From Syntrophobacterales bacterium (GTDB lineage Bacteria; Desulfobacterota; Syntrophobacteria; BM002): a stretch of 64,000 nucleotides of DNA. This document shows positions 2,467-61,290 of the stretch, piece after piece (positions within the stretch are counted from its first letter, which is position 1; every line of letters starts with the position of its first letter). The translations under genes and the position numbers were made by a program. Where the stretch lies: contig JASFEM010000006.1 in assembly GCA_050124835.1 (NCBI GenBank), forward strand, positions 6,110 through 70,109. The letters are read 5' to 3'. Under the pieces are notes generated by a model. It made no database searches. It had not been told where the DNA came from and saw only the letters and a program-made list of their open reading frames with translations.

Positions 2467-2535
2467 TTTCGCATTAATCATTTCACATTTATCATTAATC
2501 TCGCCGCGTCAACGCGTCTTCGTGTCGCCGTGTCG
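2467..2535. repeat. Heptamer (TTWMKCA) array followed by octamer (CGCCGYGT-like) array
   Basis: tttcgca ttaatca tttcaca tttatca ttaatct, then cgccgcgt caacgcgt cttcgtgt cgccgtgt. Confidence 0.75.
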
Positions 2536-2569
2536 TTTTCAAATACAGACTAAACTTCGTTCATAGCTT

Positions 2570-3958
2570 TCAGCCTCCCTCTCTTTCCTGCAAGCGTTTG
2601 AGCAACTCTTCGCCCGTCTGCCAGACGTTTCCTGCGCCAAGGGTGAGGATCACATCACCCTCCTGTGCTTCGTTAACAAGCAGCGACACCAGGTCGATGT
2701 GGTCCGGAACATACCTGGTGTTGCCATGGCCGTGTTGCTGGATGGCCGCTGCTAGCTTTTCTGCATGGACCCCATGAATGGGCGGCTCACTGGCAGCGTA
2801 AATGTCAGTAACGATGAGAACGTCCGACTGGTAAAAGGCAGTGGTGAAGTCATCGAAAAGCGCGTGCGTGCGGGTGTAACGATGCGGCTGGAAGAGTACC
2901 AAGCGACGTCGGCCCGGATAGGACTGTGCTATGGTTTTCAGCACGGCCTTGATCTCGGTTGGATGGTGGCCATAGTCATCAATTATGGTGATGTCATTTA
3001 CCTCTCCCTTGATTTGAAAACGACGCTGCACTCCGGTCATTCCCTGAAGACCTCGACAAATAGCAGAGAAAGGGATCTCTAATTCGTGACCAACAGCCAC
3101 GGCTGCCAGGGAATTCAAGACATTGTGCCAGCCAGGAATTGGCAGATTAACCCTTCCCATTTCAGTGCCACGGTAGGCGGCTGTGTAAGAGCAGTTGAGT
3201 CCGTCAAAGGCCACATCACGTGCTTGAAAATCGGCCTGCGCCGAGAAGCCATAAGTGACAAGGCGTTTCTTGATCCGAGGGAGCAGGCTCTGAATGTTCT
3301 CATCTTCAAGACAGAGGATGTTGAGCCCATAGAACGGGACCTGGTTGATGAATTCAAGAAAAGTCTCACTGATCTCATTCAGGTCCTTGTAGTAATCAAG
3401 ATGTTCGGTATCAATATTGGTCACCAGGGAAATGGTCGGAGAATAAAGCAGAAATGTACCATCGCTTTCATCCGCTTCAGCCACCACAAAATCGCCTTGG
3501 CCGAGTTTTGCGTTGGTTCCCCAGGCGTTTAATCGACCCCCGATTACCACGGTAGGATCAAGGCCGCCCTCAGCCATCACCGTTCCCACCATGGAGGTGG
3601 TGGTCGTTTTGCCGTGAGCCCCAGCCACCAGTACTGCATACTTTAGCCGCATAAGTTCGGCGAGCATCTCGGCTCTCTTGATAACCGGTATATGGTAATC
3701 CTTTTCGGCCGCAACCACTTCAGGGTTGTCTGGGGCAACGGCGGATGAGACCACGGCAACTTCAGCGTCGGCTACGTGCTGACTCGCATGGCCGTAATAG
3801 ATCTTAGCCCCAAGAGTCTCGAGACGACGGGTAATTTCACTCTCAGTCAGGTCAGATCCACTTACCCGATGACCGATATTCAAGAGCAATTCAGCGATAC
3901 CACTCATACCGATGCCACCGATGCCAATGAAGTGAATATGGTAAGAACGCTTGTACAT
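2570..3958 (-). CDS. murC: UDP-N-acetylmuramate--L-alanine ligase
   Basis: IHFIGIGGIGMSGIA, GAHGKTTTT, EADESDG, DDYGHHPTE, FQPHRYTRT motifs. Confidence 0.98.
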   Translation of the reverse strand: MYKRSYHIHFIGIGGIGMSGIAELLLNIGHRVSGSDLTESEITRRLETLGAKIYYGHASQHVADAEVAVVSSAVAPDNPEVVAAEKDYHIPVIKRAEMLAELMRLKYAVLVAGAHGKTTTTSMVGTVMAEGGLDPTVVIGGRLNAWGTNAKLGQGDFVVAEADESDGTFLLYSPTISLVTNIDTEHLDYYKDLNEISETFLEFINQVPFYGLNILCLEDENIQSLLPRIKKRLVTYGFSAQADFQARDVAFDGLNCSYTAAYRGTEMGRVNLPIPGWHNVLNSLAAVAVGHELEIPFSAICRGLQGMTGVQRRFQIKGEVNDITIIDDYGHHPTEIKAVLKTIAQSYPGRRRLVLFQPHRYTRTHALFDDFTTAFYQSDVLIVTDIYAASEPPIHGVHAEKLAAAIQQHGHGNTRYVPDHIDLVSLLVNEAQEGDVILTLGAGNVWQTGEELLKRLQEREGG

Positions 3959-3963
3959 GAGTC

Positions 3964-3992
3964 AGTTTAGCCTGTTGTGCCGGTTTAGCCGG
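3964..3992. repeat. Nonamer array in the ftsW-murC gap
   Basis: agtttagcc tgttgtgcc ggtttagcc gg. Confidence 0.55.
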
Positions 3993-4021
3993 TCACAAAA
4001 ATCTGTGCACTTCAGTAAATT

Positions 4022-5212
4022 CTAGCCATTCCTTATCTTTTTCCTCCTGCCCGGACTGCCAGCCGACCAGTTTGCTTTGGCCGCGCTCTGTTCCTTGCCT
4101 CGGCTACTGATATTCAGGAGAATCCCAATGGCTGCCAGGTTGGTCAGCAGAGAACTACCACCGTAACTCATAAAGGGGAGCGGAAGCCCCTTGGTGGGCA
4201 GCAGGCCCATGACAACCGCACCGTTAATCAACGCCTGGAGGCCGATGACCATGGTCAAGCCGAAGGCCAGGTAGGTGCCGTAGCGGTTGGGTGCCCGTAA
4301 GGCGATTTTGATCCCTTTGTAGACCATCAAACCATAGAGCAAAAGAACAAAGGATACACCCACCAGACCGGTTTCTTCACCAATGACCGCCAAAATGAAA
4401 TCCGTATGCGCTTCAGGTAAATAAAAAAGCTTCTGCTGGCCGGAACCAAGACCAACTCCCAACGGACCGCCCGAGCCCAAGGCGAGCAACGAATGGAGCA
4501 GCTGAAAACTCGAATCGCTAGGATCCCGCCACGGATTGAGAAAGGCGAGCAATCTCTCCAAACGGTAACTAGTTTGGGCGATGGCCAGACCGAGAAGGGG
4601 AATCACTGCGATGCCGGTGGCAAAAAGATAGCGAGACCGCACGCCGCCGACAAAAAGCAGGAGAAAGACCAGGGTCGCGAAGGTTACAGCAGTGCCCAGG
4701 TCGGGTTGCATAACAACCAATCCGATAAAAAGCGCGGAAATCAGGAGGTGCGGCAGATAGCCTATGGAGAACTCTTGCACCCTATCGCCTTTTTTGGCCA
4801 AAGAATATGAGATGTAAATGATGAGGGCCAGTTTGGCGAATTCAGCAGGTTGCATAGAAATTGGGCCGAATCGAAGCCAGCGCCTAGCGCCCCCAACCCG
4901 GTGTCCCACTTGCGGCAGAAGCACGACGATGAGACTCAACAGACTCACCCCGAGGATGATGTAGACCAGGCGGCGGTACACTCCAAAGGGCAGATTCTTA
5001 CTGACGATGAGCACAGCGATGCCAATAAGGGCAAAAAGCATTTGTTTCTTGACAAAATACATACTATCGCCGTAACGCTGCTGAGCCATAATGGAACTGG
5101 AGCTGTAAAGCATAACGAGACCAATCCCCATCAGAGCCAAAGTGGTCAGCAACAGAACCAGATCGTAGCTGTTTCTATCCTCGCTTCTCACAGCCATAAG
5201 CCTTGACGCCAT
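4022..5212 (-). CDS. ftsW: SEDS peptidoglycan polymerase FtsW
   Basis: Multi-TM; GARRWL, QPAEFAKL, QPDLGT, LPEAHTDFI, LPFMSYGGSS motifs; dcw context. Confidence 0.96.
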   Translation of the reverse strand: MASRLMAVRSEDRNSYDLVLLLTTLALMGIGLVMLYSSSSIMAQQRYGDSMYFVKKQMLFALIGIAVLIVSKNLPFGVYRRLVYIILGVSLLSLIVVLLPQVGHRVGGARRWLRFGPISMQPAEFAKLALIIYISYSLAKKGDRVQEFSIGYLPHLLISALFIGLVVMQPDLGTAVTFATLVFLLLFVGGVRSRYLFATGIAVIPLLGLAIAQTSYRLERLLAFLNPWRDPSDSSFQLLHSLLALGSGGPLGVGLGSGQQKLFYLPEAHTDFILAVIGEETGLVGVSFVLLLYGLMVYKGIKIALRAPNRYGTYLAFGLTMVIGLQALINGAVVMGLLPTKGLPLPFMSYGGSSLLTNLAAIGILLNISSRGKEQSAAKANWSAGSPGRRKKIRNG

Positions 5213-5222
5213 TTGTCATAGT

Positions 5223-6653
5223 TCATTTGTGAGCATTCAGTTTTCTTTTGTCCCTGATAGAAGCTATCCAGGGACAACTGATACGATTATTCGTTTTCTC
5301 TTTTTCAGCGGCCAATTTGTGAACCAGAGCCCTGAAATGATCCCCCCGCTCTTGGTAGTTGTCGTAGAGATCAAAACTCGAACAAGCTGGAGAAAGCAGG
5401 ACCACATCGCCAGGGACGGCGGCGTCTAGAGCAACTGAAACTGCCGCGTCCATGTTGTCCACCACCACCGTGCAAGCGAGATTTCCCAGAGCCTTGGCCA
5501 ACCGAAATCGAGCTTCACCCATGAGCACAAGCATCTTCACCCGCTGGCGCACCAAGGCTGTGAGCGGTGCATAGGAGCCTTCCTTGTCACGACCGCCGGC
5601 CACAAGGATGATGGGTGAGGTGAAGCTTTCCAGGGAGCGCACCACTGAGTCCACGTTAGTGGCTTTGGAGTCGTTGTAAAACTGGATACCACGCCAGTGG
5701 TGAATAGGTTCCATGCGGTGCGGGAGTGTTTTGAAGTTGTCAATGGTCTCCTGAATAGCCTCAGGCTCACCACCCATACAGGTGGCCGCAAGTACTGCAG
5801 CCAGAAGGTTTTCTTGGTTGTGGCTACCAGCGAGTTGCCAGTGACGCAGATCATAGCGACGCGTCTGACCTGGCGCTATGCGGCAAACTATCCCACCCGA
5901 TTCCAGATGGGCGTGAGCTGAAGGTCTGGTCAAACTAAAGTGCAGCTGGGTACCGCGAATGGTACAGCGTGTGCTAATAAGGGGAGCATTGTCGGGAATT
6001 ATCGCGGTATCATCAACTGTCTGATTAGCAAAAAGTCGGCATTTGCTCGCCACGTAGTCTGAAAAAGAATGATAGCGATCCAAATGATCCTCACTGATAT
6101 TGAGGAGGACTGCAACCTGGGGGTGAAAGGTCTCCATGGAGTCAAGTTGGAAGCTGCTCACCTCAACGACCGCCATCTCGAACGTTTCCTTTTCTTGAAA
6201 AATTCCGATCAGCGGGTTGCCGATGTTTCCGCCCACGAAGACTTTCTGACCACTGTTCTTGAGCATGTCTCCCACTAATTCTGTGGTCGTGGTCTTGCCA
6301 TTGGTGCCGCCTATGGCCACAATGGGCAGCCGGAGAAAACGACAGGCGAGTTCCAGTTCTCCGATGATTGGCACACCTTTTCTTCTTGCTATTGACAATT
6401 GAGCCAAATCCAGGGGGATACCTGGACTGACAACTATGAGGTCCGCGGTGTTAAACAGTTCCGCAGGATGATCCCCCAGTGTCACGGAGCACCCAAGCTC
6501 GCGGGCACGATCCACCGCCGTACCAAGAGCCGTGGCGGGGAGCTGGTCGTTGATGGTAACGTGGGCACCCTTGTTCTGAAGGAACTCAGCCGCGGCAAGA
6601 CCACTGCGGGCCAGTCCCACGACCAAAACATTTTTATCCTTGAAGTTTTTCAT
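5223..6653 (-). CDS. murD: UDP-N-acetylmuramoyl-L-alanine--D-glutamate ligase
   Basis: VLVVGLARSG, GTNGKTTTT, GGNIG, EVSSFQL, NISEDHLDRY, NDSKATN, SPACSSFD. Start set to ATG 6653; the ORF-track start at 6722 lies inside a repeat array. Confidence 0.96.
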   Translation of the reverse strand: MKNFKDKNVLVVGLARSGLAAAEFLQNKGAHVTINDQLPATALGTAVDRARELGCSVTLGDHPAELFNTADLIVVSPGIPLDLAQLSIARRKGVPIIGELELACRFLRLPIVAIGGTNGKTTTTELVGDMLKNSGQKVFVGGNIGNPLIGIFQEKETFEMAVVEVSSFQLDSMETFHPQVAVLLNISEDHLDRYHSFSDYVASKCRLFANQTVDDTAIIPDNAPLISTRCTIRGTQLHFSLTRPSAHAHLESGGIVCRIAPGQTRRYDLRHWQLAGSHNQENLLAAVLAATCMGGEPEAIQETIDNFKTLPHRMEPIHHWRGIQFYNDSKATNVDSVVRSLESFTSPIILVAGGRDKEGSYAPLTALVRQRVKMLVLMGEARFRLAKALGNLACTVVVDNMDAAVSVALDAAVPGDVVLLSPACSSFDLYDNYQERGDHFRALVHKLAAEKEKTNNRISCPWIASIRDKRKLNAHK

Positions 6654-6705
6654 CACGATCTTAACAACTGCCATCTCAAGGCGATCGACATAAGACGTGG
6701 GATAA

Positions 6706-6754
6706 CCCATCTCGCATCCCACATCTCACATCCCATATCGACTTCTTACATCTC
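6706..6754. repeat. Heptamer array (CACATCY) in the murF-murD gap
   Basis: cccatct cgcatcc cacatct cacatcc catatcg; same unit recurs at 61208-61232. Confidence 0.75.
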
Positions 6755-6780
6755 CATTCAGATCCAGTTTTGCTCAGCTC

Positions 6781-8202
6781 TTATTCTCTCTCAGACTCAG
6801 CCAAAAGAATCTCCACTACCTTCTCCATTCGCATTCCCCTAGAACCCTTCACCAGCACCCAATCACCAGCAGCTATCAAACGCCGAACCCGCAAAGCCAT
6901 TTCCTGGTGATCGTTCGCTTGAGTCAAACATCCGCTGTCCATGCCGGCCTCAGCAGCGCCAGCAAGCAGATGAGAGGCCTGCGCACCCATGGCCAGAAGA
7001 TGATCAACCCCTTCTTTGGCTGCTATACTGCCAACCTGCCAGTGCAGGGTCGCAGTGTCCTCCCCCATTTCCAGCATGTCACCGAGGACTGCGAAAGCTC
7101 TCCCCTTCTTCTTCACTTTCATCAAGGTCTCCAGGGCAGCAGCTACGGAGCCGGGATTGGCATTGTAAGTATCATTAATGATATGTATGTCCTCAGGAAG
7201 AACGAGAATCTCCATGCGCTTGTCAACCGGGTGGAAATTTGCCAGGGCCTCGGCTATGGTACCTACCGGTAGGTTTAGGCTCCGAGCAACGGCTGCGGCT
7301 GCCACGGCGTTGTTGATATGGTGGCGGCCGATCACCGGCAGGTAGATTTCGTAGCTTTCTTTCGCTACTTTCAGAAGGAACCGACTCCCATTTGCATCTA
7401 TGGCGAGAATCCGCTCGAGTGCTACCTCCCCATTGGCTCCAGCTGCGGAAAAGCTCACCTGACGACCAGGGAACGAAGAGGCCAGGTCGAGGACTCTAGG
7501 ATCGTCCCGGTTGACCACGATGGTCGCGGTCGCTGCCATACCCGCGAAGAGTTCGCCCTTAGCGGCCTGAATTCCCGCGAGGCTTCCAAGTCCCTCAAGG
7601 TGGGCTGGCTGAATATTGGTAATGAGGCCCACATCTGGACGGACGATTTCGGTCAACCGCTGGATTTCTCCTGGTTGATTCATTCCCAGCTCTACCACCG
7701 CTCCCTGGTGGGTGTCGTCAAGTTGCAGCAAGGTAAGCGGCAACCCCACCAGGTTATTAAAGGTTCCCTCGTTTTTTAAAACCTTCCAGGATCTACTGAA
7801 AATAGCAGCAACCATCTCTTTTGTAGTGGTTTTGCCATTGGAACCGGTTATCGCCACCACGGGGACAGGGTGACGGCGGCGCCAGTAGCCGGCCAGATCT
7901 CCAAGAGCATGAAGGGTATCACCCACCCCAACAACTGAGACCTGAAGTTCCTGAACCGCAAGTCTCTCTGTCTCGTCCAGAGCCACAATGAGGCCAGTTG
8001 CCCCGCCGCTTACCGACTGTTCCACAAACTGGTGCCCATCAAAGGTTTCTCCCTTTAGGGCTATAAATAGTTCTCCCGGACGCAGCGTGCGGCTGTCGGT
8101 GGAAATCCCGACAAAACGTTGCTCTCCACCTGTTGCCAAAAGCTCACCGCCAGTTGCTTCCAGGACCATATCGAGTGTCCATATGTACTTGTCATTGGTC
8201 AT
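6781..8202 (-). CDS. murF: UDP-MurNAc-tripeptide--D-Ala-D-Ala ligase
   Basis: STDSRT, GETFDGH, ITGSNGKTTTKEM, ELGMNQPGEI, NDTYNANP, LGDMLEMG, KGSRG motifs. Confidence 0.97.
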   Translation of the reverse strand: MTNDKYIWTLDMVLEATGGELLATGGEQRFVGISTDSRTLRPGELFIALKGETFDGHQFVEQSVSGGATGLIVALDETERLAVQELQVSVVGVGDTLHALGDLAGYWRRRHPVPVVAITGSNGKTTTKEMVAAIFSRSWKVLKNEGTFNNLVGLPLTLLQLDDTHQGAVVELGMNQPGEIQRLTEIVRPDVGLITNIQPAHLEGLGSLAGIQAAKGELFAGMAATATIVVNRDDPRVLDLASSFPGRQVSFSAAGANGEVALERILAIDANGSRFLLKVAKESYEIYLPVIGRHHINNAVAAAAVARSLNLPVGTIAEALANFHPVDKRMEILVLPEDIHIINDTYNANPGSVAAALETLMKVKKKGRAFAVLGDMLEMGEDTATLHWQVGSIAAKEGVDHLLAMGAQASHLLAGAAEAGMDSGCLTQANDHQEMALRVRRLIAAGDWVLVKGSRGMRMEKVVEILLAESERE

Positions 8203-8222
8203 CAGCTAGTAGTTCTTAGTTC

Positions 8223-9773
8223 CTAGTGCTTTTCTGTTTGGCGTTTCCTTCTCTCCTCTAGCGCTTCGGTTGCCACAAGGCGATCATCGAAGTCAATGCG
8301 TTTGTCGCCGAGAATCTGGTAATTCTCATGACCCTTGCCGCCGATATAAACGACATCCCCTTCACCAGCGCAATCGATTGCCTGCCGGATGGCTTTGGAA
8401 CGGTCCACCACCAGGGTGTAGCCGCGATGGCAGTTGTTCCTACATTCGGCAAGGGAAGAGAGCAGGGGGAGACCTTGTCCACGAACGCCAGCTTCAATGT
8501 CGGCCATGATGGTCTCGGGCACTTCACTCCTGGGGTTGTCAGAGGTAATCACCACTAAATCGGCACGCAGCGCTGCTGCCTCTCCCATGAGGGGACGTTT
8601 GCCACGATCGCGATCTCCACCACAGCCAAATACGCAGATGATCTTTCGGAACTGAAGCTCTCTCAGGGAGTCCAGAGCCTTTTCCAGGGCATCCGGAGTG
8701 TGGGCATAGTCCACGAGAACCTGGAAACCCATGTCGTTTGGAACGGCCTCTAGACGCCCAGGAACTCGAGCCAGAGATTGCTCCCCGCGACTGATTGCCT
8801 CCAGGGAAAGTCCGAGGCCCACTGCCACTGAGGTGGCTGCAAGAAGATTGTAAAGATTCAATCGACCAAGCAGAGATGAATGCACCTGCAGTAAACCCAC
8901 AGGGGTATGCAGCTGGGCTTGAATGCCGGAAGAGTCGCACTGAACCGTGTCGGCTCGAATCTCAGCGTCGGCTGCCATGCCGTAGCGAAGAAGTGGACCG
9001 TCGATCTGCGAGCAAAGTCGTCGGCCCCAATCATCGTCGATATTGACGACGGCGAGGGCTTGAGCATCTCCATTTTGCTGAAGAATCTGAGAAAACAGTC
9101 GGCTTTTGGCCCCAAAATACTTCTCCATACTGCCGTGATAATCTAGATGATCCTGGGAAAGATTGGTGAAAAGACCCACGGCAAAGCGGGTTCCATCCAC
9201 CCGGTGCATGTCTAGGCCATGTGAAGAGACCTCCATAACCACGTGGGTAACTCCTGCATCCAGCATTTTTCTGAGGTTCTGCTGCAGATCGAGAGACTCC
9301 GGGGTAGTAACTGGTGCCGGACGAAGATGGCCTGGATATCGAATGTTGACAGTACCTATAACCCCAACCTGCAACTCGCAGGCTTCGAGGATTGACTCGA
9401 GCAGGTAGGCGGTGGTGGTTTTTCCGTTGGTTCCGGTGATGCCGATGACCGTGAGTCCATGAGAAGGAAAACCGTAAAATCGGTTTGATATGCGAGCGAG
9501 AGCAGTTCTGGTGTTGGGCACCTCAATGGTTGTCACGCCTGGCACAGGGTCGAGTGGTTTCTCCACTACGAGGCTATGGGCGCCCCGCTCTATTGCTTGA
9601 CCGATAAAGTCATGGCCATTACTCTGGGTGCCCTTAATGGCGACAAAGAGGCTGCCTTCGCCGACCTGCCCACTGTGGTAAGCGACACCCTTCACCTCAC
9701 GCTGCAGTTCACCGTGCAAATGCACTATGGAAAGATCCTGAACCAGATGTTCCAGCTGCATGCGTCTCCTCAC
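8223..9773 (-). CDS. murE: UDP-MurNAc-dipeptide--meso-DAP ligase
   Basis: ITGTNGKTTT, MEVSSHG, TNLSQDHLDYH, VDYAHTPDAL, GCGGDRD, DNPR (meso-DAP-type motif), GKGHE. Confidence 0.97.
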   Translation of the reverse strand: MRRRMQLEHLVQDLSIVHLHGELQREVKGVAYHSGQVGEGSLFVAIKGTQSNGHDFIGQAIERGAHSLVVEKPLDPVPGVTTIEVPNTRTALARISNRFYGFPSHGLTVIGITGTNGKTTTAYLLESILEACELQVGVIGTVNIRYPGHLRPAPVTTPESLDLQQNLRKMLDAGVTHVVMEVSSHGLDMHRVDGTRFAVGLFTNLSQDHLDYHGSMEKYFGAKSRLFSQILQQNGDAQALAVVNIDDDWGRRLCSQIDGPLLRYGMAADAEIRADTVQCDSSGIQAQLHTPVGLLQVHSSLLGRLNLYNLLAATSVAVGLGLSLEAISRGEQSLARVPGRLEAVPNDMGFQVLVDYAHTPDALEKALDSLRELQFRKIICVFGCGGDRDRGKRPLMGEAAALRADLVVITSDNPRSEVPETIMADIEAGVRGQGLPLLSSLAECRNNCHRGYTLVVDRSKAIRQAIDCAGEGDVVYIGGKGHENYQILGDKRIDFDDRLVATEALEERRKRQTEKH

Positions 9774-9778
9774 TAATC

Positions 9779-11779
9779 TTAATCTGCCACCAGGATAAGG
9801 CTACATGAATCAACCGTGCTAAGATTGCTGCCCGGTTCAGGATTCTGTCCCACCACCCGGCCGCAGCCGTGAATGTCTAAGGAGCCAGTAAAATTTCGCA
9901 GCTTGTCAAGAGCAGCTCTAAGGCTGAGCCCAGTGAGGTCAGGCATCGCCAGCTTATGGTCGCTGTCTATCTGGTCATACGCTACCGGCTGTAGAGCCGT
10001 CAGCCGTTTTTGCATTTGGGGGTCGGTGCTGTCCCGCCCTGCAATGCTCTTGGCCTTGTTCTTAATCTTTTCGGGAGGTAGCTGGAGGGCGTGAAGAGTT
10101 TGCTGGGCGATACGACGAAAAGCAGGTGCTGCCACCACACCACCGTGGAACCCCTTTTGAGGTTCGTTGATCACCACAACAACAAGGATTTTTGGATCCG
10201 TCACAGGTACAAAACCAACAAAGGAAGCGGTGTAAAGATCCTCCGAGTATCCACCACTCTGTCGATTGCTTCTCTGGGCAGTTCCGGTCTTGCCAGCCAC
10301 CTGATATTGCGCGAGCGCGGCCTTAGCGCCTGTACCTCCTGGGGAGATAACATCAGCTAGCAGCTGCTTCATACGTTGGGCGGTGTCCGCACTGATCACA
10401 CGACGAACCACCCGGGACTTGTTCCGCCCGACGACTTTACCTCGCGCGTCCAGCACTTCTTTAACGAGCAAAGGTTGCATCAGAAGGCCATCGTTGGCCA
10501 CAACACCTAGGGCGGTGGCGAGTTGTATGGCGGATACTGAAAGGCTTTGTCCAAAACTGGCGGCGGCAAGGTCCACGGTTGACCACTGCTCAGGAGGACG
10601 GATCAAGCCGGAGGTTTCACCCGGCAAGCCAATACCGGTGGCTTTGCCGAAGCCGAAGGAGCGAATGTAGTGGTAAAAACGGTTCGAACCCAATTTTTCC
10701 CCAACTTTGGCAGCGCCAATGTTACTGGAATAACGAAGGATATGAGCTAGAGAGAGCCAGCCAAATTTACGCAGATCATGGATCGTGTGGTTCAGCACCC
10801 GGTAACTGCCCTGCTCGCAGAAAAACAGGTCATCTGGATGAACCAATTTCTCTTCCAAAGCTGCCGCCACCAGAAATATCTTGAAGGTGGACCCCGGTTC
10901 AAAAGCATCAGTCACTGCACGGTTTCGCCAAGAGGAGGGGCGATAAGAGGAAAAAGAATTGGGGTTGAATGACGGAAAAACTGCCATGGCCAGAATCTCG
11001 CCCGATTCCGGTTCCATCACTATAGCGGTACCGCTTTTCGCCTGGTGACTGCGTACTGTCTCCTGCAGTTCCCTTTCCGCGATGTACTGGATACGTTTGT
11101 CCAGGGTGAGTCTGAGGCTGTACCCCTGGGGATCGGATTCGGCAGGCAGCCCCTGGGTGTAAATTATTTGACCTCGCGCGTCCTTGGTTCCGGGATGAGT
11201 GTCAGAATTGCCGCGCAATAGAAGATCCATGGAAGTTTCCAATCCCTCGAGACCGTGATGTTCTCTGCCAACGAATCCGATTACGTGGCCCGCGAGTTCT
11301 ACATTCGGGTAATAACGGCGGTCCTCTTTGACAAAGTGGATTCCCTCGAGATCAAGCGCCCTAACCTCATCGACCTGTCGAGGAGTGAGGTAGTGTTTTA
11401 GCCAGACGAAAGCTCGAGGCTGACTCAACTTTTCTACCAGTTTCGGAACAGGGACCTTGATGGCAGCAGTGAGTTGTCGAGCCGTGGCTGCGGGATTCTT
11501 TATGACTCGCGGGTTGGCGGCCAGGGATTCCATCTCAATGCTTACAGCCAACTCTTGCCCGTTTCGGTCGTATATATCTCCTCGCTTTGGCTCAAAGAGG
11601 AGACTTCTCCTGATCTGGTTGTTGGCAACGCTTGACCAACCCTCCGATTGAAAAAACTGAATCTGGAAGCTCCTGGCTATCAGTAGCGCGAAGCCCACGA
11701 GCAGCCCCCCAGCCACTAGAATGACCCGGAGCTTGATCCAGCGAACCTCAGGATTGTGAGAGCGGGGCTTAGGTGTCAT
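9779..11779 (-). CDS. ftsI: Class B penicillin-binding protein FtsI/PBP3 with C-terminal PASTA-like domain
   Basis: RGDIYDRNG, RYYP, GLEGLE, EPGSTFK (SxxK), YSSN (SxN), GKTGTAQ (KTG); C-terminal MPDLTGLSLRAAL. Confidence 0.95.
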   Translation of the reverse strand: MTPKPRSHNPEVRWIKLRVILVAGGLLVGFALLIARSFQIQFFQSEGWSSVANNQIRRSLLFEPKRGDIYDRNGQELAVSIEMESLAANPRVIKNPAATARQLTAAIKVPVPKLVEKLSQPRAFVWLKHYLTPRQVDEVRALDLEGIHFVKEDRRYYPNVELAGHVIGFVGREHHGLEGLETSMDLLLRGNSDTHPGTKDARGQIIYTQGLPAESDPQGYSLRLTLDKRIQYIAERELQETVRSHQAKSGTAIVMEPESGEILAMAVFPSFNPNSFSSYRPSSWRNRAVTDAFEPGSTFKIFLVAAALEEKLVHPDDLFFCEQGSYRVLNHTIHDLRKFGWLSLAHILRYSSNIGAAKVGEKLGSNRFYHYIRSFGFGKATGIGLPGETSGLIRPPEQWSTVDLAAASFGQSLSVSAIQLATALGVVANDGLLMQPLLVKEVLDARGKVVGRNKSRVVRRVISADTAQRMKQLLADVISPGGTGAKAALAQYQVAGKTGTAQRSNRQSGGYSEDLYTASFVGFVPVTDPKILVVVVINEPQKGFHGGVVAAPAFRRIAQQTLHALQLPPEKIKNKAKSIAGRDSTDPQMQKRLTALQPVAYDQIDSDHKLAMPDLTGLSLRAALDKLRNFTGSLDIHGCGRVVGQNPEPGSNLSTVDSCSLILVAD

Positions 11780-12096
11780 GGCAGCACTACAATTTGCTCC
11801 TTGGTTGGGTGCCTTAGGCCCAGCTGTTGGATGGCAATGCGCTCCACGCGCTCAGGGGCCTTAAGTCTGGCCAGCTCCAAGTGCAGCTTCTTGTTATCAT
11901 TCAACAATTGGGTGTGTATCCGGTGAACGTCGGACAGCAAATAGCCCAAATGAACGACCTGAACCCGGCACCAGACATAGCCAAAACCACTCAAGAGAAG
12001 CCATACAAAAACGGCCACGGTTGCGAATATCCGGCGATTTTTCAAGGCCTGCTTTGCAGACTTACTGGCTGTCTTTTTTCTTGGTTTCTTGCTCAT
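11776..12096 (-). CDS. ftsL: Cell division protein FtsL
   Basis: Basic N-terminus, one TM helix, coiled coil ending RVERIAIQQLGL; lies between rsmH and ftsI. Confidence 0.88.
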   Translation of the reverse strand: MSKKPRKKTASKSAKQALKNRRIFATVAVFVWLLLSGFGYVWCRVQVVHLGYLLSDVHRIHTQLLNDNKKLHLELARLKAPERVERIAIQQLGLRHPTKEQIVVLP

Positions 12097-13045: not shown

Positions 13046-13198
13046 CGGACAAAGTCATCCCAAATTTGATCCCGCATCAGACAATGTGATGTGGGGATTA
13101 CTTACAGATTACCTTGGAAAACCCAGTAGGGCCGTTTCAGACATTATCCGCCGTTGGCAGTTACTTCGGCGGAGCTATGACGGCTCAGCCCATTGGAC

Positions 13199-13349
13199 TG
13201 ACGCGGGGACGGGGAGAAGCGGCAACGTAGAGTAGAATTGGTCTGCGCTGTTCATATGTTTTGATCCGTGATGCCCCAAATGTCTTTGCCCACCATTGGT
13301 TTTTGGGTTAAGGTTAACTCTGTTACCGCTTCTCCGCGTCCCCGCGTCA
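13199..13349. repeat. MITE-like element: 28-bp inverted arms (2 mismatches) built from octamers, 95-bp core
   Basis: TGACGCGGGGACGGGGAGAAGCGGCAAC (13199-226) versus reverse complement of 13322-349. Confidence 0.85.
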
Positions 13350-15147: not shown

Positions 15148-15195
15148 TTTCCTTCCCGGCTATCAACGTTCAGCTGGTGGGCATTGTCCAATCTT

Positions 15196-15485
15196 GGTAA
15201 ACGGTGAACAGTGAACGGTGAACAGTGAACGGTAAACGAAACAGATACCCATTTTTTAAATCCGAAATCCGCAATCCGCAATCCCAAATCCGCAATCCCC
15301 AGCACTAAATGCCTAAAACATACTGAAGTCTGCAATCTACAGTCTCCATTCTGCCCTCTGCTTCTGATCTCCGACCTCCGACTTCTGACCTCTTTCTGCT
15401 GCCCGCTGCAAGCTGCCTGCTGTCTTTTGCCCCAAGGCAGAAACTTTTTTCGCCGCGTCTCCTTATCACCGTGTCCCCGCGTCGT
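15196..15485. repeat. Composite cassette of several short-unit arrays
   Basis: (RGTGAAC)x6, linker, (TCCGCAA)x5, then CTGACYT, GCTGC and octamer modules. Confidence 0.85.
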
Positions 15486-15506
15486 TAAGTGCTGCCGAAC
15501 CGCCAT

Positions 15507-16298
15507 TCATATATCTCCAACGCTAACCCGCTGGGATAAAAGCTGATAGATATCTAACCCTGCTGCGGCGAACCCTTTGAGACCGTAGACCATATTGGCC
15601 TCTAATACCAGATATTCGCCTTTGCAGTAGCAAAGATCAAGCCCAACCTCATCGAACTTACAAAGGCGGGCCACCTTTTCAGCTAAACGTAATGCGGTGG
15701 AGGGAATATCCTGTAGCGAAATGCGCCCACCGAGGGACACATTTGTTCGGAATTCTCCGGGCCTGGCAATTCGCCAGTAGGCGTGTACCACCTTCGCTCC
15801 CAGCAAAACTATTCTTAGATCCCGGTCAATGGGAAGATATTCCTGTATATAGGCGGGGGAGCACTTTTTAAGGTAACTTTGGAGGTCTCCCTGTGTTCGG
15901 ATTAGAAAAACGCCTCTACCCTTTGAAGAACCTCTGGGAATTTTGGCGATAAAAGGGAAGGGAAAATCAGTGGGGATTTGATGTGTCTCCTGGCTGGAGC
16001 CGTACATCCGGGTACGGGGGTGTGGGATATCGAGCAAAGTGAAGAGCTCTGTCTGTTTGATTTTGTCGCCCATATAGCGGTAGTAATTTGCTGGGAAGAC
16101 CCGTTTGCCCAGCGAGAGGAAGACGTCTTCGTAGAGACTAGTTGGATAATAGATGGTACCTGCACTCCGGAGCAGCTCCAGTTCAGTCTCGCTGTAATCG
16201 TCAATATTGGGACGTAATCCCAGGCTTTGCACCAGGGGACTGTGTCGGAGTCTTTTTCCCAGGGCGATCTTTTTTTCAGTCATACCGCAATAGCGCAA
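15507..16298 (-). CDS. RimK/LysX-family ATP-grasp ligase
   Basis: FIAKIPRGSSKGRGVFLI, YIQEYLP, DLRIV, FRTNVSLGG, GLDL, LEAN motifs. Confidence 0.8.
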   Translation of the reverse strand: MRYCGMTEKKIALGKRLRHSPLVQSLGLRPNIDDYSETELELLRSAGTIYYPTSLYEDVFLSLGKRVFPANYYRYMGDKIKQTELFTLLDIPHPRTRMYGSSQETHQIPTDFPFPFIAKIPRGSSKGRGVFLIRTQGDLQSYLKKCSPAYIQEYLPIDRDLRIVLLGAKVVHAYWRIARPGEFRTNVSLGGRISLQDIPSTALRLAEKVARLCKFDEVGLDLCYCKGEYLVLEANMVYGLKGFAAAGLDIYQLLSQRVSVGDI

Positions 16299-16446
16299 AG
16301 CGCATAGCGTTTTTTTATTCAGTCAGAATGACAACCAATACGTCATCTAGGAGCAACCTCCCGATTGCAATGAGAGATCTTGAGATCAGCTTTTATCGCA
16401 AGCAGAGCTTACTCCTAGAATAATTTTTTACCAAGAAAAAACCTGA

Positions 16447-17562: not shown

Positions 17563-17577
17563 GAACGACCTCCCTCA

Positions 17578-17680
17578 GTCATTGGTCATTTGACATTTCT
17601 CATCTGGCATTGATCATTGGGCTTCAAATATTAAATGCTCAATGTGAAATGCTCAATGCGAAATGTGAAATGATAAATGT
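17578..17680. repeat. Inverted pair of heptamer arrays (nnCATTK / MAATGnn)
   Basis: Six left units and seven right units around a 13-nt spacer between ald and the DUF2156 gene. Confidence 0.8.
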
Positions 17681-18597: not shown

Positions 18598-18839
18598 GTC
18601 ACCTAGACTGGCTGTTTAAGATTTGTTTTGTTTAGTAATTAGACCTGAGGCAGAGGATCCAAGAGCCGAAATCCGAAGTACGAAATTCGAAACAAAAGGA
18701 CGTTTTGACTATGTCATATCCCGGATAGGGAGTCAACGTTACAAGATTTTTCTTGACATGGCAAACTCTCCATGATTTAAGTAAACATTTTAAGAAGTAC
18801 TGGGTTCATCATTCCAATTAATAACGGGGGGACAGTGCA

Positions 18840-18968
18840 ATGATAAAGAGCCCTTGCGTAGGTTGTGAGTTGGTCAGCGAGGATAAAAACAAGTGCCTTG
18901 AGAACTGTGATAAGCTCAAGGAATACCAGGAGATTATCCTCAAACAGGGAATCTATGCCAAGATATAG
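18840..18968 (+). CDS. Small Cys-rich hypothetical protein (42 aa), below ORF-track cutoff
   Basis: MIKSPCVGCELVSEDKNKCLENCDKLKEYQEIILKQGIYAKI; G-rich SD (GGGGGAC) upstream, TTGACA at 18753-58, strong terminator directly after. Confidence 0.65.
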   Translation: MIKSPCVGCELVSEDKNKCLENCDKLKEYQEIILKQGIYAKI

Positions 18969-18988
18969 TGAGACTCTCACACCTGAGC

Positions 18989-19021
18989 AAAAAAGGCGGC
19001 CTGCGGGCCGCCTTTTTTTTT
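18989..19021 (+). terminator. Intrinsic terminator, probably bidirectional
   Basis: AAAAAAGGCGGCC-TGCG-GGCCGCCTTTTTTTTT hairpin with A-run before and T-run after. Confidence 0.85.
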
Positions 19022-19382
19022 GACCCCCATAATGGTGTTTGTAAATCCTCGTGAAAGTAAGTGCCACGAAATGCAGAGCGAGATTACGGCTAAATGGCGT
19101 ACTGGAGTGTTGGGAATGGTTTGAACTTGCTACAGGTAATATATTCTATAACGCCACTCCACCATAGATTCTCTATCCGGTTTGAGGATAAACTTGGAGG
19201 CCGATCGCGGCTTCTATCCCTGAGTGCCAACGGAAATACCTTGCCCTTCAAGGCAAAACTCCATAAAATGCGGGAATACCGAAGAAAAGTACCCTCGATT
19301 GAGATACGAGAATAGCGGTTGATGCTTTACCCTATGACAAATAACTTTCGATTGAGTGTTATCGCTTAATCGAGGAAATAGT

Positions 19383-21238: not shown

Positions 21239-21278
21239 TGGAGTAGTGGAATAATGGAATAATGGCATGATGGAGTTG
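21239..21278. repeat. Octamer array (TGGARTAR)
   Basis: tggagtag tggaataa tggaataa tggcatga tggagttg. Confidence 0.75.
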
Positions 21279-21825: not shown

Positions 21826-22009
21826 AAGGTGAGCGTAAGGCATCACTAAGTCATTTGGCTTCGCCGTCATTTGGTCATTAAGTCATTAGGTCGTAGCGAT
21901 GAATATCTACTAATGACAGAAATGTAGGGTGGGCATTTCCCACCGACAAAGCCAATGCAAAATGATAAATGTGAAATGATAAATTAGAAATGCCTCGGAG
22001 GAGAACGCA

Positions 22010-23309: not shown

Positions 23310-23462
23310 ACGGATTGCGGATTGCAGATTTTAGATTTTAGATTGCAGATTTAAGAATTTCGGGTTTGGGATTTCGGATTGCGAATTTCGAATTTAAGAA
23401 AAGGTATCTGTTCCCTTGACCCTTGACCCTTCACTCTTCACGATTCACCCCTCACCCCTTAC
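23310..23462. repeat. Composite heptamer cassette between hemL and atp
   Basis: Long (GATTKCR) array, linker TTAAGAAAAGGTATCTGTTCC, then (CCTTGAC/CCTTCAC) array. Confidence 0.85.
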
Positions 23463-31943: not shown

Positions 31944-32075
31944 AAATTCCAAATCCCATGCACCAAATTACAAATAAATTTCAAATTCCAATATTCAATG
32001 ACCAAAACATGTTTGGAATTTTGTATTTCGGTCATTGTGTTTTGTTTGTTAGTTGTGATTTGTAATTTGGAATTT
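31944..32075. repeat. Imperfect palindromic element built from AAATTCC/AAATTAC units
   Basis: Terminal AAATTCCAAAT / ATTTGGAATTT and internal CAAATTACAAAT / ATTTGTAATTTG inverted matches. Confidence 0.8.
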
Positions 32076-32092
32076 CAATCACCTTCCGCTTC

Positions 32093-37255: not shown

Positions 37256-37371
37256 GAAGCTCTCCTCCTATACTTCGGACCTAATTCTTAAGAGTTCTGG
37301 ATTTTGCAACGCAGGCATAATACTCCAGTCCCCACAAATTGTCTAGGTAGAAGCATAGAGCATGGGGCTAG

Positions 37372-37640
37372 ACCATTTCGGATTTCGGATTTCGGATTGC
37401 GGATTTAAAAAAGGGCATCTGTTCCGTTTACCGTTCACTGTTCAGCTCTCACCAGAGGGATTTCGGATTTTGAAACTATAAATAGTGATCTCTGCCCTCT
37501 GATCTATGACTTCTGATCTCTAATCTTTTCTAATCCCCGTTTCGCCGTTGCTCCCAATCCCCGTGTCATTCCGCTGTGCCTAGTGCTTAGTTCCTAGTGC
37601 CTAGTTGCAACGGCTGCCAGTTGCACGCTGCCAGCTGGTT
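37372..37640. repeat. Composite cassette, copy A
   Basis: Same module order as 57445-57780; first 73 nt differ at only 2 positions. Confidence 0.9.
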
Positions 37641-37672
37641 GCGTGTCCGACGAAAGAGTACTTTCAATGCCC

Positions 37673-38412: not shown

Positions 38413-38590
38413 TGCCTAAAGTGAGCTAAAGTGTCTAAAATGTCTAAAATGGAAATTGTCTGGGTGGCGAGTCGCCCAACCTTACTGGTTGAGAAATGAA
38501 AGTAGTTTTATTATATTCCTTTCCCTAGCGAGTGTAGTCCTCCGGATTTTAGGCACTTTAGCTCATTTTAGCTCACTTTAGACACTTAAC
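38413..38590. repeat. Inverted pair of 9/10-mer arrays (TGCCTAAAR / TGAGCTAAAR) around a ~95-bp core
   Basis: Left 38413-451, right (reverse complement) 38546-590. Confidence 0.85.
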
Positions 38591-41900: not shown

Positions 41901-41916
41901 AGTTCATACTATGAAG
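41901..41916. promoter_or_regulatory. Candidate MarR operator 1 (autoregulatory)
   Basis: Palindrome TTCATA-C-TATGAA overlapping the marR ATG and just after TTGACT-N17-TAAAGT. Confidence 0.55.
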
Positions 41917-51077: not shown

Positions 51078-51407
51078 CGGGAAACCAGCAGGCAGCCGGC
51101 AGCAAAGCGTAGCTGAAAGCGTCCCCTAAAGTACAACTAGGCACTAAGCACCAAGCACTGTGAATCTGATTGAATCCTCGGAAGTTACTATAGATAGTGG
51201 CGGGATCTCGAATGACGAAGCGTAGATTAAAGTATGTTAGTTGAAGTCCTCTACCTGATTACTAGGGCTTCATATTTTAGCGCCTATAAGGCCTCCTCTT
51301 GTCAAGGCATAGACTTATCCCAATAACGCTTAAGAGAAATCGCTCCATACCCCTACTTGTCATTGACGAAGATCTTGTTGCCTAGTCCATTCCGTTGGCT
51401 TACAGAA

Positions 51408-57410: not shown

Positions 57411-57444
57411 TGTTGATTCCAAATTACTGAAGGCATAGAGCTAT

Positions 57445-57780
57445 ACCATTTCGGATTTCGGATTTCGGATTGCGGATTTTAAAAAGGGTATCTGTTCCGT
57501 TTACCGTTCACTGTTCACCTTTGACCCGCGGGAGTTGGGATTTCGGATTTTGAAATTATAAATAGTGATCTCCGTTCTCTGATCTCTGACCTCTATCGTC
57601 CGCCCTTTAATCCCCTTCTCGCCGTTTCTCCCCGCCCCCGTGCCTGCCCGCCATCGGCTTCGCCTTCAGGCGAGGCGGGCGGGTCGTCCCGCTGTGCCTA
57701 GTGCTTAGTCCCTAGTGCCTAGTTTTCAATGCTGCCAGCTGCTGGCTGTCTGCTGCAAGCTGGGCAAAGGCCTTGCGCCT
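57445..57780. repeat. Composite cassette, copy B, with an inserted hairpin
   Basis: Homologous to 37372-37640, plus a GC hairpin at 57643-57683. Confidence 0.9.
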
Positions 57781-59555: not shown

Positions 59556-59793
59556 ATATAATCCTCTATTTTTTTGCATTTCCATATAAAACGAACTTCC
59601 CGGCAAAGCTCTCACAACCTGGAACCAAGCTCTGGGAAGCGTTAGCAGTCCTAATTTTTTTCGTTTATTGAAAGTCAGATACCAGAGATGGGCAATAGGT
59701 CACAGACACTACATGGTTCAGCGAAGTCTGGTTGAGCAATTGCTTTCTACCTGCGCCTAGTGCCTAGTGTTTAGTGCCTAGTGCACACAGTAC

Positions 59794-60972
59794 TCAGCGG
59801 TCTTCCATGGGCACAAACTCGCAGACCTCGGGACCGCAGTAGTCTCCAACATAGTCCGATTCGGGGCGGTAGAGCATTGGCTTTGGCGCCGCTTCAGCAA
59901 ACTGCTCCTCTATTATATGGGCCGTCCAGCCGGCGATCCTGGCGATGGCGAAGATGGGAGTAAACTGATCCATGGGGATACCCATCATGTAGTAAAGCGA
60001 GGCGCTGTAGAAATCCACGTTGGTATAAATGTCCCTATTTTTGCGCTTCTTAAACTCCTCCTTGGCTACTTTTTCGAGGAGCGCCGACATCTCGTACCAT
60101 TTCGATTCTCCAAACCTTTCACCCACGGTCTTGGACATGGGAGCCAGTATCAACGCCCGGGGATCATCTACCTTGTACACCGCATGCCCCAAGCCCATAA
60201 TCCTCTGGCCCGCATCAAACTGTTCCTTGACGTAGCTTTCTACTTTTTCGGGTGAGCCGATATCCATGAGCATTTCCATCACCCGGGTGTTGGCACCTCC
60301 GTGCAGTTCACCCGAAAGGGAACCCACAGCACCCGCTACCGCGGCATACATGTGTGCCCGGGTAGAAGCAATTTCTCGAGCAGCAAAGGTGGAGGCGTTG
60401 AATCCATGCTCGGCGTGCATGACCAAGGCAGCGTCGAAGAAGCCGGCTATATCTTCGTCAGGTACTTCACCTTTCATCATGTAAAGGAAGTTTGCGGCAT
60501 GACTTAGATTGGGATCGGGGTCGATGGGTTCCTGGCCATTACGGATACGTTCCCAGGCGGCGACAACGGTGGCAAATTTGGCTATCAATCGAATTGCTTT
60601 ACGGTGACTGGCTTCTCTGGAAGGATCTTCAACTTCGGGATCATGATGGGCGAGCATGGACGCACTGGCCTGCAAGATATCCATGGGCAAAGCACTGTTT
60701 GGCCTTGTTTTGAGAGCAGCAATTAGCTCGGCAGGTACTGCTCGCTCTGCCGCGAGTTGGGCCGAGAACGCTTTGTTTTGGTCCCGAGTCGGTAAAATCT
60801 CATTGAGTAAGAGATGAACAACTTCCTCAAACGAAGCTTTACCGGCCAAGTCTTTAATCAAATAACCTCTGTAAACCAATCTGCCTGCAGAACCATCTAC
60901 ATCACCGATATTGGTGCTGGCCACAACGACGCCGCGAAGGCCGATATTCTTAAACTCCATTCCCGTCTCCAT
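59794..60972 (-). CDS. Citrate synthase (citrate/2-methylcitrate synthase family)
   Basis: GLRGVV, GRLVYRGY, HAEHGFNASTF, LHGGAN, MGLGHAVYK..DPR, NVDFYS, IFAIARIAGW; start refined to ATG 60972. Confidence 0.93.
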   Translation of the reverse strand: METGMEFKNIGLRGVVVASTNIGDVDGSAGRLVYRGYLIKDLAGKASFEEVVHLLLNEILPTRDQNKAFSAQLAAERAVPAELIAALKTRPNSALPMDILQASASMLAHHDPEVEDPSREASHRKAIRLIAKFATVVAAWERIRNGQEPIDPDPNLSHAANFLYMMKGEVPDEDIAGFFDAALVMHAEHGFNASTFAAREIASTRAHMYAAVAGAVGSLSGELHGGANTRVMEMLMDIGSPEKVESYVKEQFDAGQRIMGLGHAVYKVDDPRALILAPMSKTVGERFGESKWYEMSALLEKVAKEEFKKRKNRDIYTNVDFYSASLYYMMGIPMDQFTPIFAIARIAGWTAHIIEEQFAEAAPKPMLYRPESDYVGDYCGPEVCEFVPMEDR

Positions 60973-61067
60973 AATCGTCTCCTTCTCACCCTCCCCAGTC
61001 CATTCCCCCAATGGACCAGCTTTTGTTCTAAATCAATACAAAATACTAGATTAGAATTATTTTAAGA

Positions 61068-61096
61068 ATTCTAAACATCAAATTATAGCTTGTCAA
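61068..61096 (-). promoter_or_regulatory. Near-consensus sigma70 promoter for citrate synthase
   Basis: TTGACA (61091-96) N17 TAGAAT (61068-73) on the minus strand. Confidence 0.75.
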
Positions 61097-61118
61097 AAAG
61101 GTAAGGGGTAGGGAAGGA

Positions 61119-61290
61119 AATGCCTAAAATGCCTAAAGTGAGCTAAATTGTCTAAAATGCCTAAAGCACAAAAGATGTGTGATGTGGGATAAAGCCCTGT
61201 TTCCGTAGCATCTCACATCTCATATCTCACATCCGCAATCCGCAATCCGCAATCGTCAATGCCCCATGCTCTTTACCCTATGCCCAATGG
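61119..61290. repeat. Composite cassette: 9/10-mer CTAAA array, CACATCT array, TCCGCAA array
   Basis: atgcctaaaatgcctaaagtgagctaaattgtctaaaatgcctaaag; tctcacatctcatatctcac; atccgcaatccgcaatccgcaat. Confidence 0.85.

Follow-up and report, generated by a model that had tools for sequence, protein, structure and literature searches.

What the short tandem repeats are that fill the intergenic gaps of a housekeeping region is the question raised by a 64,000-nucleotide stretch of DNA from a Syntrophobacterales bacterium (C6:6110-70109; hereafter the window, that is, the whole stretch that was analysed). The source genome (G000) comprises 3.97 Mb in 287 contigs at 50% GC. Its closest named relatives are metagenome-assembled genomes labelled 'uncultured delta proteobacterium', and the metagenome runs that contained window DNA came from wetland and marine sediments. 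The gaps carry arrays of 7-10-nt units, and these arrays are, on balance, probably modules of small intergenic elements that carry no gene, are non-autonomous, form a population throughout the lineage and resemble the intervening sequences (IVS) of ribosomal RNA. The modules lie in transcribed spacers, and the window holds no mobiliser.

The original prediction had named 21 gaps of the window as carrying arrays. With Tandem Repeats Finder (TRF) at a score of at least 30, arrays were present at 18 of these sites (2467, 3964, 6706, 8207, 15196, 16287, 17578, 18666, 21239, 21841/21866, 23310, 31944/32045, 37372, 38413, 51080, 57445, 59751 and 61119). Site 13199, an inverted octamer pair recognised by eye, was the 19th real site; at 19097 and 26380 a convincing array was not found on inspection. 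As a null, 100 dinucleotide-preserving shuffles of the 37 gaps of the window (9.5 kb) were used. The gaps gave 37 TRF rows of period 7, 14 or 21 against a shuffle mean of 0.29 (maximum 2), and arrays were carried by 17 gaps against a shuffle mean of 1.09 (maximum 4). The window arrays are far beyond chance under this composition-matched null.

In the whole genome, period 7 accounted for 1545 of the 3374 TRF rows. The total load was ~2400 arrays, and the period-7 arrays alone occupied 46.8 kb, or 1.2% of the genome. Exact arrays of at least 3 copies numbered 82 at period 7 and 0-4 at each of periods 5, 6 and 8-11. Open reading frames (ORFs) of at least 120 aa held 16% of the period-7 array bases (84% lay outside), compared with 81% of the genome; period-8 arrays were similarly non-coding, and those of periods 6, 9, 10 and 12 were mostly coding. 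The motifs listed in the original prediction were 1.2-14.6 times denser in non-coding DNA, and permuted motifs had a median ratio of ~1. The arrays are thus intergenic, as had been claimed, and they do occur inside the dcw operon, where four junctions carry them (murB|murC, murC|ftsW, murD|murF and murF|murE). The 'limited vocabulary' of units stood in so far as a few cores dominate (top units by array number: GCCTAGT, 135; CGGATTT, 89; GCAGATT, 55; GCGGATT, 45), and not as a count, the canonical heptamer units of the genome numbering 261. The exclusion of CRISPR was borne out, the arrays being made of contiguous 7-10-nt units with no spacers and no constant 25-40-nt repeat.

The sites of the window are given below by position, with the strand where one was assigned and with the evidence in brackets; z compares the RNA fold with shuffles.

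2466..2500: heptamer array of the (CATTNNN) type at the murB|murC junction (TRF, period 7/14).
3965..3993: 9-mer array GTTTAGCCG at the murC|ftsW junction (TRF, period 9, 3.2 copies).
6708..6739: CACATCY heptamer array at the murD|murF junction (TRF, period 7/14).
8210..8231: TAGTTCT/TAGTGCC heptamer array at the murF|murE junction (TRF).
13196..13348, minus strand: hairpin element upstream of mraZ, with inverted octamer arms of the ACGCGGGG type, reading GACGCGGGGACGGGGAGAAGCGG ... CCGCTTCTCCGCGTCCCCGCGTC, and a ~100-nt core (sequence; fold -59.9 kcal/mol, z -5.6 for 13196-13345).
15196..15422: composite chain in the order (GGTGAAC)n, inverted linker AACAGATACCCATTTTTT, (AAATCCG)n, (CTCCGAC/CTTCTGA)n + (CTGCYGC)n (unstructured, z +1.0).
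16286..16309: CGCAAAG heptamer array downstream of alaDH (TRF).
17578..17679, minus strand: hairpin element directly 5' of the alaDH ribosome-binding site, laid out as (CATTNNN)n, an 11-nt loop and (NNNAATG)n (inverted match 16/18; fold z -4.8 for 17572-17685).
18667..18692: CGAAATN heptamer array (TRF).
21239..21274: octamer array TGGAATAA (TRF, period 8, 4.5 copies).
21866..21992: opposed arrays GTCATTNN (period 8) and AAATGAN (period 7), with a CATT core in both (TRF; weak fold, z -1.55).
23311..23459: chain upstream of the ATP-synthase genes, in the order (GATTNNN)12, linker AGAAAAGGTATCTGTTCCC, (TTGACCC/TTCACNC)n (TRF; unstructured, z +0.5).
31965..32075, minus strand: hairpin element with arms of the AAATTAC/TTTGTAA type (TRF; fold z -4.4 for 31960-32080).
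37340..37640: copy 1 of a dispersed ~300-nt composite, in the order GCATAGA, (ATTTCGG)4, linker AAAAAGGGCATCTGTTCCG, (TTTACCG/TTCACTG), (TGATCTC)n, a CCCCGT block, (GTGCCTA)4 and (GCTGCCA)n (alignment; unstructured, z +1.1).
38426..38581, plus strand: hairpin element with 9/10-mer arms CTAAAATGT / AGCTAAAGTG (TRF; fold -53.5 kcal/mol, z -5.9 for 38420-38569).
51086..51159: CAGCAGG and ACTAAGC arrays 3' of recD2 (TRF).
57425..57735: copy 2 of the ~300-nt composite, carrying in addition the 41-nt palindrome GCCTGCCCGCCATCGGCTTCGCCTTCAGGCGAGGCGGGCGG as an insert at ~57641-57681 that is also found in the copy on C251 and not at 37550 or in the copies on C5 and C33 (alignment; unstructured, z +1.9).
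59755..59784: GCCTAGT array, the commonest unit of the genome (TRF).
61118..61254: chain of the 9-mer AAATGCCTA x5, opposed GATGTGN / CACATCT arrays and (ATCCGCA)3 (TRF); the opposed pair folds no better than shuffles, z -0.1.

In a module, ~4-5 units follow one another in tandem. The units are mostly 7 nt long, more rarely 8-10 nt, and each has a 4-nt invariant core and three restricted variable positions. In profiles aligned in phase, the four core positions were 92-98% invariant and positions 5-7 held two or three bases, as in GATT[G/T][C/T][G/A]. Copy number peaked at 4-4.5 units, with a sharp drop above 5.

Modules combine into either hairpins or chains, and both the inverted pairs and the conserved linkers described in the original prediction were real. 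Of adjacent arrays, 8.8% were inverted-complementary (at least 15/18), compared with 2.1% of random pairs, a ~4-fold excess, and direct matches were not enriched. The genome holds 207 inverted pairs, with loops mostly of 20-150 nt. The polarity of the hairpins is fixed by family (GATT first in 23/23 pairs, CATT-type in 6/6), and overall the G-rich arm precedes in 128 pairs, against 43. In the window, arrays are paired at 13196/13326, 17578/17632, 31965/32045 and 38426/38554, and the large chains are unpaired; those at 15196, 23308, 37372 and 57445 had below-shuffle structure (z +0.5 to +1.9). The chains constitute genuine families of dispersed repeats. Linker AAAAAGGGTATCTGTTCCG was found in 10 copies, four of them in the window, always with a GGATTNC array on one side and a TTCACNG array on the other. 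The ~300-nt composite fills the two largest gaps of the window (37340-37640 and 57425-57735) and recurs on C251, C5 and C33; alignment showed that its copies differ through nested insertions of 41 nt and ~75 nt.

G000 was compared over 60 kb with a relative of ~96% nucleotide identity (G012). Turnover of the modules is rapid and takes three forms: slippage in steps of one unit, exchange of entire modules, and gain or loss of 200-330-nt composites. Gap 2467 differed between the two genomes by exactly one 7-nt unit, gap 16287 was longer by one 7-nt unit in the relative, and gap 8207 carried there extra blocks of 14, 7 and ~13 nt built of the same units. At 6650-6815 (murD|murF) the relative had unrelated GTCATNA/TGACCNA arrays in place of those of the window, and at 15240-15500, the right two-thirds of the 15196 chain, it had other modules. 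At 17563-17690 replacement by unrelated modules was wholesale, and the alaDH hairpin was absent. The arms of this hairpin recur with other loops in the more distant G008, G002 and G007; across four species the basal stem persists, with one compensatory pair, and the loop varies. The 9-mer array at 3965..3993 was nearly conserved in G012, and the hairpin at 13196 was conserved at ~97%. As a separate observation, the ~100-nt core upstream of mraZ (13228-13320) was almost identical in G012 despite a divergent adjacent spacer; it could be a promoter, a leader or a small RNA.

Composites of 200-330 nt that resemble miniature inverted-repeat transposable elements were present in one of these two genomes and absent from the other, none of them lying in the window. 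They have a palindromic hairpin head AACCTGGTCCTGTGGGCCAGGTC (38 copies in G000) and a tail GGGCAGCTCAAAGCCAGG(...)GGGTCCTTTGGGCCTGGATTCTTTA, and enclose a variable heptamer/octamer hairpin (examples at C57:5971, C57:10822 and C22:24808). In the comparison of G000 with G012, the AACCTGGTCCTGTGGGCCAGGTC-headed composites showed no clear target-site duplication, and a full-length parent did not come to light.

The original prediction had put forward that inverted heptamer arrays flank genes for four-helix-bundle (4HB) proteins of the TIGR02436 type in anaerobe genomes, and had stated that no such gene lies in the window. Both points were confirmed. G000 has five 4HB genes (TIGR02436/PF05635; on C196, C12, C149, C139 and C18); the TIGR02436 search gave no match on C6, the contig of the window, and the window elements are gene-less. 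All five genes are bracketed by inverted 7/8-mer arrays of ~five units per arm. The arm units of the five cassettes are all different (AAGGCNC, CAGCNGG, GATTNCG, TTCGATA and the octamer TTGGAGTN), and the five proteins are mutually only 14-28% identical. Among 4HB genes from 30 other genomes of the phylum, taken at one locus per genome, 27 were bracketed, the period being 7 in 20 cases and 8 in 6. This share of 90% may be particular to the lineage, or may owe something to a loose criterion for bracketing. The background of bracketing was 2.2% of all G000 genes (equal to direct matches) and ~3% of small genes. Sister 4HB proteins have arm cores in common, sometimes across host families. The best solved-structure match of a G000 4HB protein was a Xanthomonas protein (PDB 2GSC), and family lookup identified PF05635 as the Avd-like family of diversity-generating retroelements.

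Filled and gene-less versions of one site were found at the gpmA|fba junction, which holds a 4HB cassette in G000 and G001 and a gene-less hairpin in G005 and G007; the right arm, adjoining the fba ribosome-binding site, is the same in both versions. Five sister species carry the 4HB subfamily of this cassette (75-80% aa identity, GATT-type arms) at different loci, where it sits between RND efflux genes or behind them. The distribution of arrays was surveyed in 38 genomes of the phylum, with at most 20 kb sampled from each. Genomes free of 4HB genes had the background array level (0.21% of bases), and the three array-rich samples all came from genomes with at least seven 4HB genes (Spearman 0.40, p = 0.012, 38 genomes). 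Units common in G000 were ~3-fold over-represented among the arrays of other families.

Other candidates were tried and rejected, and among the gene families considered the 4HB genes were bracketed and the RAYT gene and PilZ were not. PilZ was considered as a second cargo after three stand-alone genes had looked bracketed; in a survey, 1/56 reached the threshold against 34/1156 controls. The genome has ~70 PilZ-domain matches, mostly in stand-alone genes of 110-160 aa, an unusually large expansion (e.g. C54:3723-4863 and C5:24058-27167). A mobiliser of the type that acts on repetitive extragenic palindromic (REP) sequences, the REP-associated tyrosine transposase (RAYT), was rejected on the flanks of the sole Y1 transposase gene. 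This PF01797 gene (Y1, IS200/RAYT-like; C204:4260-5273), which has a C-terminal extension, carries the inverted 22-mer AATAGGGGACGTCCGTGAAATT on both sides and no heptamer arrays; gene and palindrome are a separate REP-type system. Remnants of cassette ends in gene-less loops were also discarded as a candidate, the leader GAAAGGGGGCACC being essentially confined to positions in front of 4HB or other small genes, and the resemblance of the chain linker to this leader was too weak and was not used. A literature search found no paper tying gene-less heptamer arrays to 4HB cassettes.

The position of the arrays relative to genes was recorded genome-wide. Orientation with respect to transcription was near-balanced in the main families (52:32, 31:24, 16:19 and 13:13), divergent (promoter) gaps were not preferred, and hairpins showed no preference for any class of gap, convergent gaps included. 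Arrays abut stop codons and ribosome-binding sites. Hairpins sit nearer the upstream stop codon (median 36 nt), and in co-directional gaps 10/104 are followed by a T-run. A general role as intrinsic terminators was rejected on the latter count and on the lack of an excess in convergent gaps, and a sense-strand RNA motif was rejected on the near-balanced orientation.

On the favoured reading, that the arrays are modules of IVS-like elements, each hairpin element has a variable loop enclosed by two inverted modules whose polarity is fixed, which is the architecture of IVS cassettes that encode S23p/4HB proteins. The chains are modules joined head to tail via conserved linkers, themselves forming dispersed families with nested insertions. 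By analogy with experiments on the Coxiella IVS, the hairpin class may form double-stranded stems in polycistronic RNA that would be cut by RNase III. The elements would spread or persist via a factor acting in trans; among gene families, the 4HB protein alone emerged as a candidate for it.

Several observations weigh against this reading. Movement, target-site duplication, a mobilising enzyme and a trans-acting factor were seen in none of the comparisons made. Recognisable hairpins hold only ~17% of the G000 arrays, and the largest window arrays are chains less structured than shuffles, so that RNase III stems cannot explain the chains. The complementarity of partner arms was 17.1 of 21, against 17.3 of 21 to arms at other loci; partner arms are thus no better matched than non-partners, which argues against selection for pairing. 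The loops of gene-less hairpins showed no obvious remnant of 4HB cassette ends, GCCTAGT, the commonest unit, has no 4HB cassette in this assembly, and several genomes with 11-15 4HB genes had zero arrays in the sampled 20 kb. Metatranscriptome contigs span 37375-37606 and 37578-38314 and place the arrays in one transcript with the upstream gene; these contigs are assemblies and may contain DNA. The proposal of the original prediction, that the arrays are non-autonomous or empty copies of an element family, is therefore upheld in part. It is favoured by the filled and empty gpmA|fba site, by the same cassette at different loci of sister species, by the dispersed composites and by the presence/absence differences from G012; with so few arrays in hairpins and the window chains unstructured, an empty cassette does not cover the chains.

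Three other explanations were weighed. The arrays may be binding sites through which host proteins tune neighbouring genes, the protein being either a nucleoid-associated protein or global regulator on DNA or a single-strand RNA binder with 7 nt per domain (cold-shock-domain type). The invariant 4-nt core, strict 7-nt spacing, free variable positions and modal 4-5 units would fit such sites, as would the lack of covariation between partner arms and the opposed arms at 21866/21960, which have one core and the periods 8 and 7. The unstructured chains would be accessible single strands, the arrays adjoin stop codons and ribosome-binding sites, and units of the MTYCTGA and TCTCCGTS kinds are in common with distant families and with Geobacter (PMC2700814). 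However, 261 unit types with dozens of cores would need many specificities, and unrelated modules were swapped between 96%-identical genomes, unlike conserved operators; the near-balanced orientation of the main families and the lack of preference for divergent gaps also speak against it. This explanation was considered possible, with perhaps a minor share of the probability.

Lower still stands the explanation by ordinary long simple-sequence repeats, arisen from in-place polymerase slippage, with no elements, mobility or function. Slippage would give a monotonic decay of copy number and the observed distribution is peaked; units differ at fixed positions within an array while cores are invariant; identical linkers and multi-module composites recur at many loci; the polarity of inverted pairs is fixed; whole gaps are replaced rather than lengthened; and 4HB genes are specifically bracketed. 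The dispersed composites had already strained this explanation, and we regard it as improbable, even with the 7-, 14- and 7-nt differences from G012 at 2467, 8207 and 16287 and the reported heptamer bias of bacterial long simple-sequence repeats (summarised in PMC4679880) in its favour. An equally doubtful alternative applies to the hairpins, which would be RNA structures selected by the host (terminators, attenuators or mRNA-stabilising stem-loops) with the repeats incidental to them. It draws on the strong folds, on the retention of the alaDH stem in four species with one compensatory pair, and on the shorter distance to the upstream stop codon. It is at odds with the scarcity of T-runs, the lack of enrichment in convergent gaps, the genome-wide absence of arm covariation, the missing alaDH hairpin of the closest relative and the lack of an Rfam match.

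The genes of the window were identified by family searches of its ORFs and are all housekeeping genes. The dcw cluster comprises mraZ, rsmH, an ftsI-type penicillin-binding protein gene, murE, murF, murD, ftsW, murC, murB and ftsQ; further genes are mltG, alaDH, a ClC channel gene, hemL, atpI/B/E (ATP synthase), uvrA, pdxA, nhaA, recD2 and those for citrate synthase and a copper ATPase. No transposase, integrase or 4HB gene was identified among the window genes, in agreement with the original prediction as to transposases. Rfam gave zero matches in the window, and no rRNA lies there. The dcw cluster (2570-13045) is without mraY, murD following directly after murF, and without murG, murC following directly after ftsW; the mraY of G000 is located outside the cluster, at C194:140-1120. 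A drop in GC content to 41.5% at 40001-42000 coincides with a TPR/FHA-domain gene (40067-41605) and is a hint of foreign origin. The long gap 18598-19355 contains, at 18841-19020, a short ORF rich in Cys (MIKSPCVGCELVSEDKNKCLENCDKL...), and downstream of it a terminator made of a clean GC hairpin and a T-run.

In practical terms, such arrays break assemblies, create spurious ORFs and mislead start-codon calls. A 123-aa ORF at 15135-15506 is made of repeats, and family searches gave no match for it. The mechanically called murD ORF (5223-6722) has a GTG start inside the repeat gap; the G012 alignment breaks off at ~6655, and an ATG giving MKNFKDKNVLVVGLARSG fits the true start, so that ORF calls are inflated by the arrays. 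At 37332-37636 the ATTTCGG/GTGCCTA array words had a summed metagenome contig depth of 640-730, against ~8-11 in the flanking unique DNA, which indicates that these arrays are common to many loci or organisms in the sample.

The description of the family as uncharacterised, made in the original prediction, did not hold: the repeat class has long been known and is yet unexplained, and it occurs here in a new host and in a richer form. Short tandemly repeated repetitive sequences (STRR) were known in cyanobacteria. Paired hepta- and octamers were known in Geobacter (PMC2700814), and heptamers in the stem of the Coxiella IVS (PMC4990558).

The 23S IVS of Coxiella burnetii has a 28-bp stem with tandem GACAGAT heptamers in strain-variable copy number (Warrier et al., 2016; PMC4990558). 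RNase III cuts it at the first repeat, and the S23p homologue, the Xanthomonas protein of PDB 2GSC, is a homopentameric toroid (PMC4990558). According to the same report, IVS that carry an ORF for S23p/PF05635 also occur in Leptospira, Brucella and Xanthomonas, and the IVS is regarded as a selfish insert (PMC4990558). The five 4HB cassettes of G000 are like the Coxiella type in having a long inverted-repeat stem, heptamers in the arms and the 4HB gene in the loop, and the window hairpins are like IVS arms in their terminal inverted repeats, long stem and tandem heptamers (z -4.4 to -5.9). Unlike IVS, which lie in helix 25/45 of 23S rRNA, the G000 elements are found between protein-coding genes, often in operons; the window has gene-less arms and unpaired chains only, and hundreds of copies with many unit types occur per genome.

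In Geobacter metallireducens, paired tandem 7/8/9-mers of three to five units were read as IHF/HU sites (Aklujkar et al., 2009; PMC2700814). The G000 arrays, which occur in a related phylum, likewise have 3-5 tandem units of 7-9 nt (peak 4-4.5) and are intergenic. The Geobacter ones are mostly opposite-strand pairs at variable distance, in tens of copies; in G000 the 207 inverted pairs take in ~17% of the arrays, and the load is far larger (~2400 arrays). Two Geobacter units have look-alikes in G000: MTYCTGA in CTTCTGA/CCTCCGA (15369-15392) and TCTCCGTS in the CTCCGCGT/CTCCGTGT octamers. The Geobacter report is without a 4HB link, chains or linkers, unlike what was found here, and its IHF/HU reading was put forward without a test.

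Intergenic TAACTGA direct repeats are present in marine Beggiatoaceae in 2-6 copies near start codons (MacGregor, 2015; PMC4679880). A cold-shock-type 7-nt RNA binder was suggested for them, and the 7-nt footprint of cold-shock proteins was summarised in the same paper (PMC4679880). The G000 arrays are also intergenic heptamer repeats, but the TAACTGA repeats are of one unit, orientation-specific and upstream of genes, whereas those of G000 have hundreds of units, are near-balanced in orientation and frequently form inverted pairs; no TAACTGA arrays were found in G000. REP sequences and their inverted doublets (REPINs) are mobilised by RAYT (Bertels and Rainey, 2011; PMC3116915). Being short, intergenic, palindromic and non-autonomous and occurring as inverted doublets, they resemble the G000 arrays. 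The G000 arrays differ from them in that the sole RAYT-like gene of the genome is flanked by its own palindrome AATAGGGGACGTCCGTGAAATT and not by heptamer arrays.

The cyanobacterial STRR heptanucleotides were reportedly described by Mazel and co-workers in 1990 as belonging to several families of units in each genome, scattered through non-coding DNA and unexplained in function. The HIP1 octamer (GCGATCGC) is typical of cyanobacteria, and was not enriched in G000 (38 copies). Like the STRR, the arrays of G000 are tandem heptanucleotides of several unit families in many dispersed non-coding copies (1545 period-7 rows). Unlike them, they occur in an uncultured deltaproteobacterial host and not in a heterocystous cyanobacterium, their unit sequences differ (top units GCCTAGT, CGGATTT and GCAGATT), and hairpin pairing and linker-joined composites are documented. 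STRR serve as fingerprinting targets (PMC5088731).

A broader and rather unlikely proposal would make the heptamer arrays and the PF05635 4HB proteins one two-part system. A toroidal homopentamer would read ~five 7-nt units, one per subunit, through a 4-nt core tuned to the subfamily, and would act in trans on array-bounded RNA or DNA by copying, protecting or processing it. Gene-less hairpins and chains in their thousands, STRR and the Geobacter sites included, would then be non-autonomous riders that colonise transcribed junctions, and the rRNA IVS a special case.

STRR, used as fingerprint targets since 1990, rRNA IVS and the very common 4HB genes are all unexplained, and in G000 the three appear as parts of one architecture. 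This architecture is found there at high copy number, in essential operons, with clear filled and empty sites and with rapid turnover of modules between near-identical genomes.

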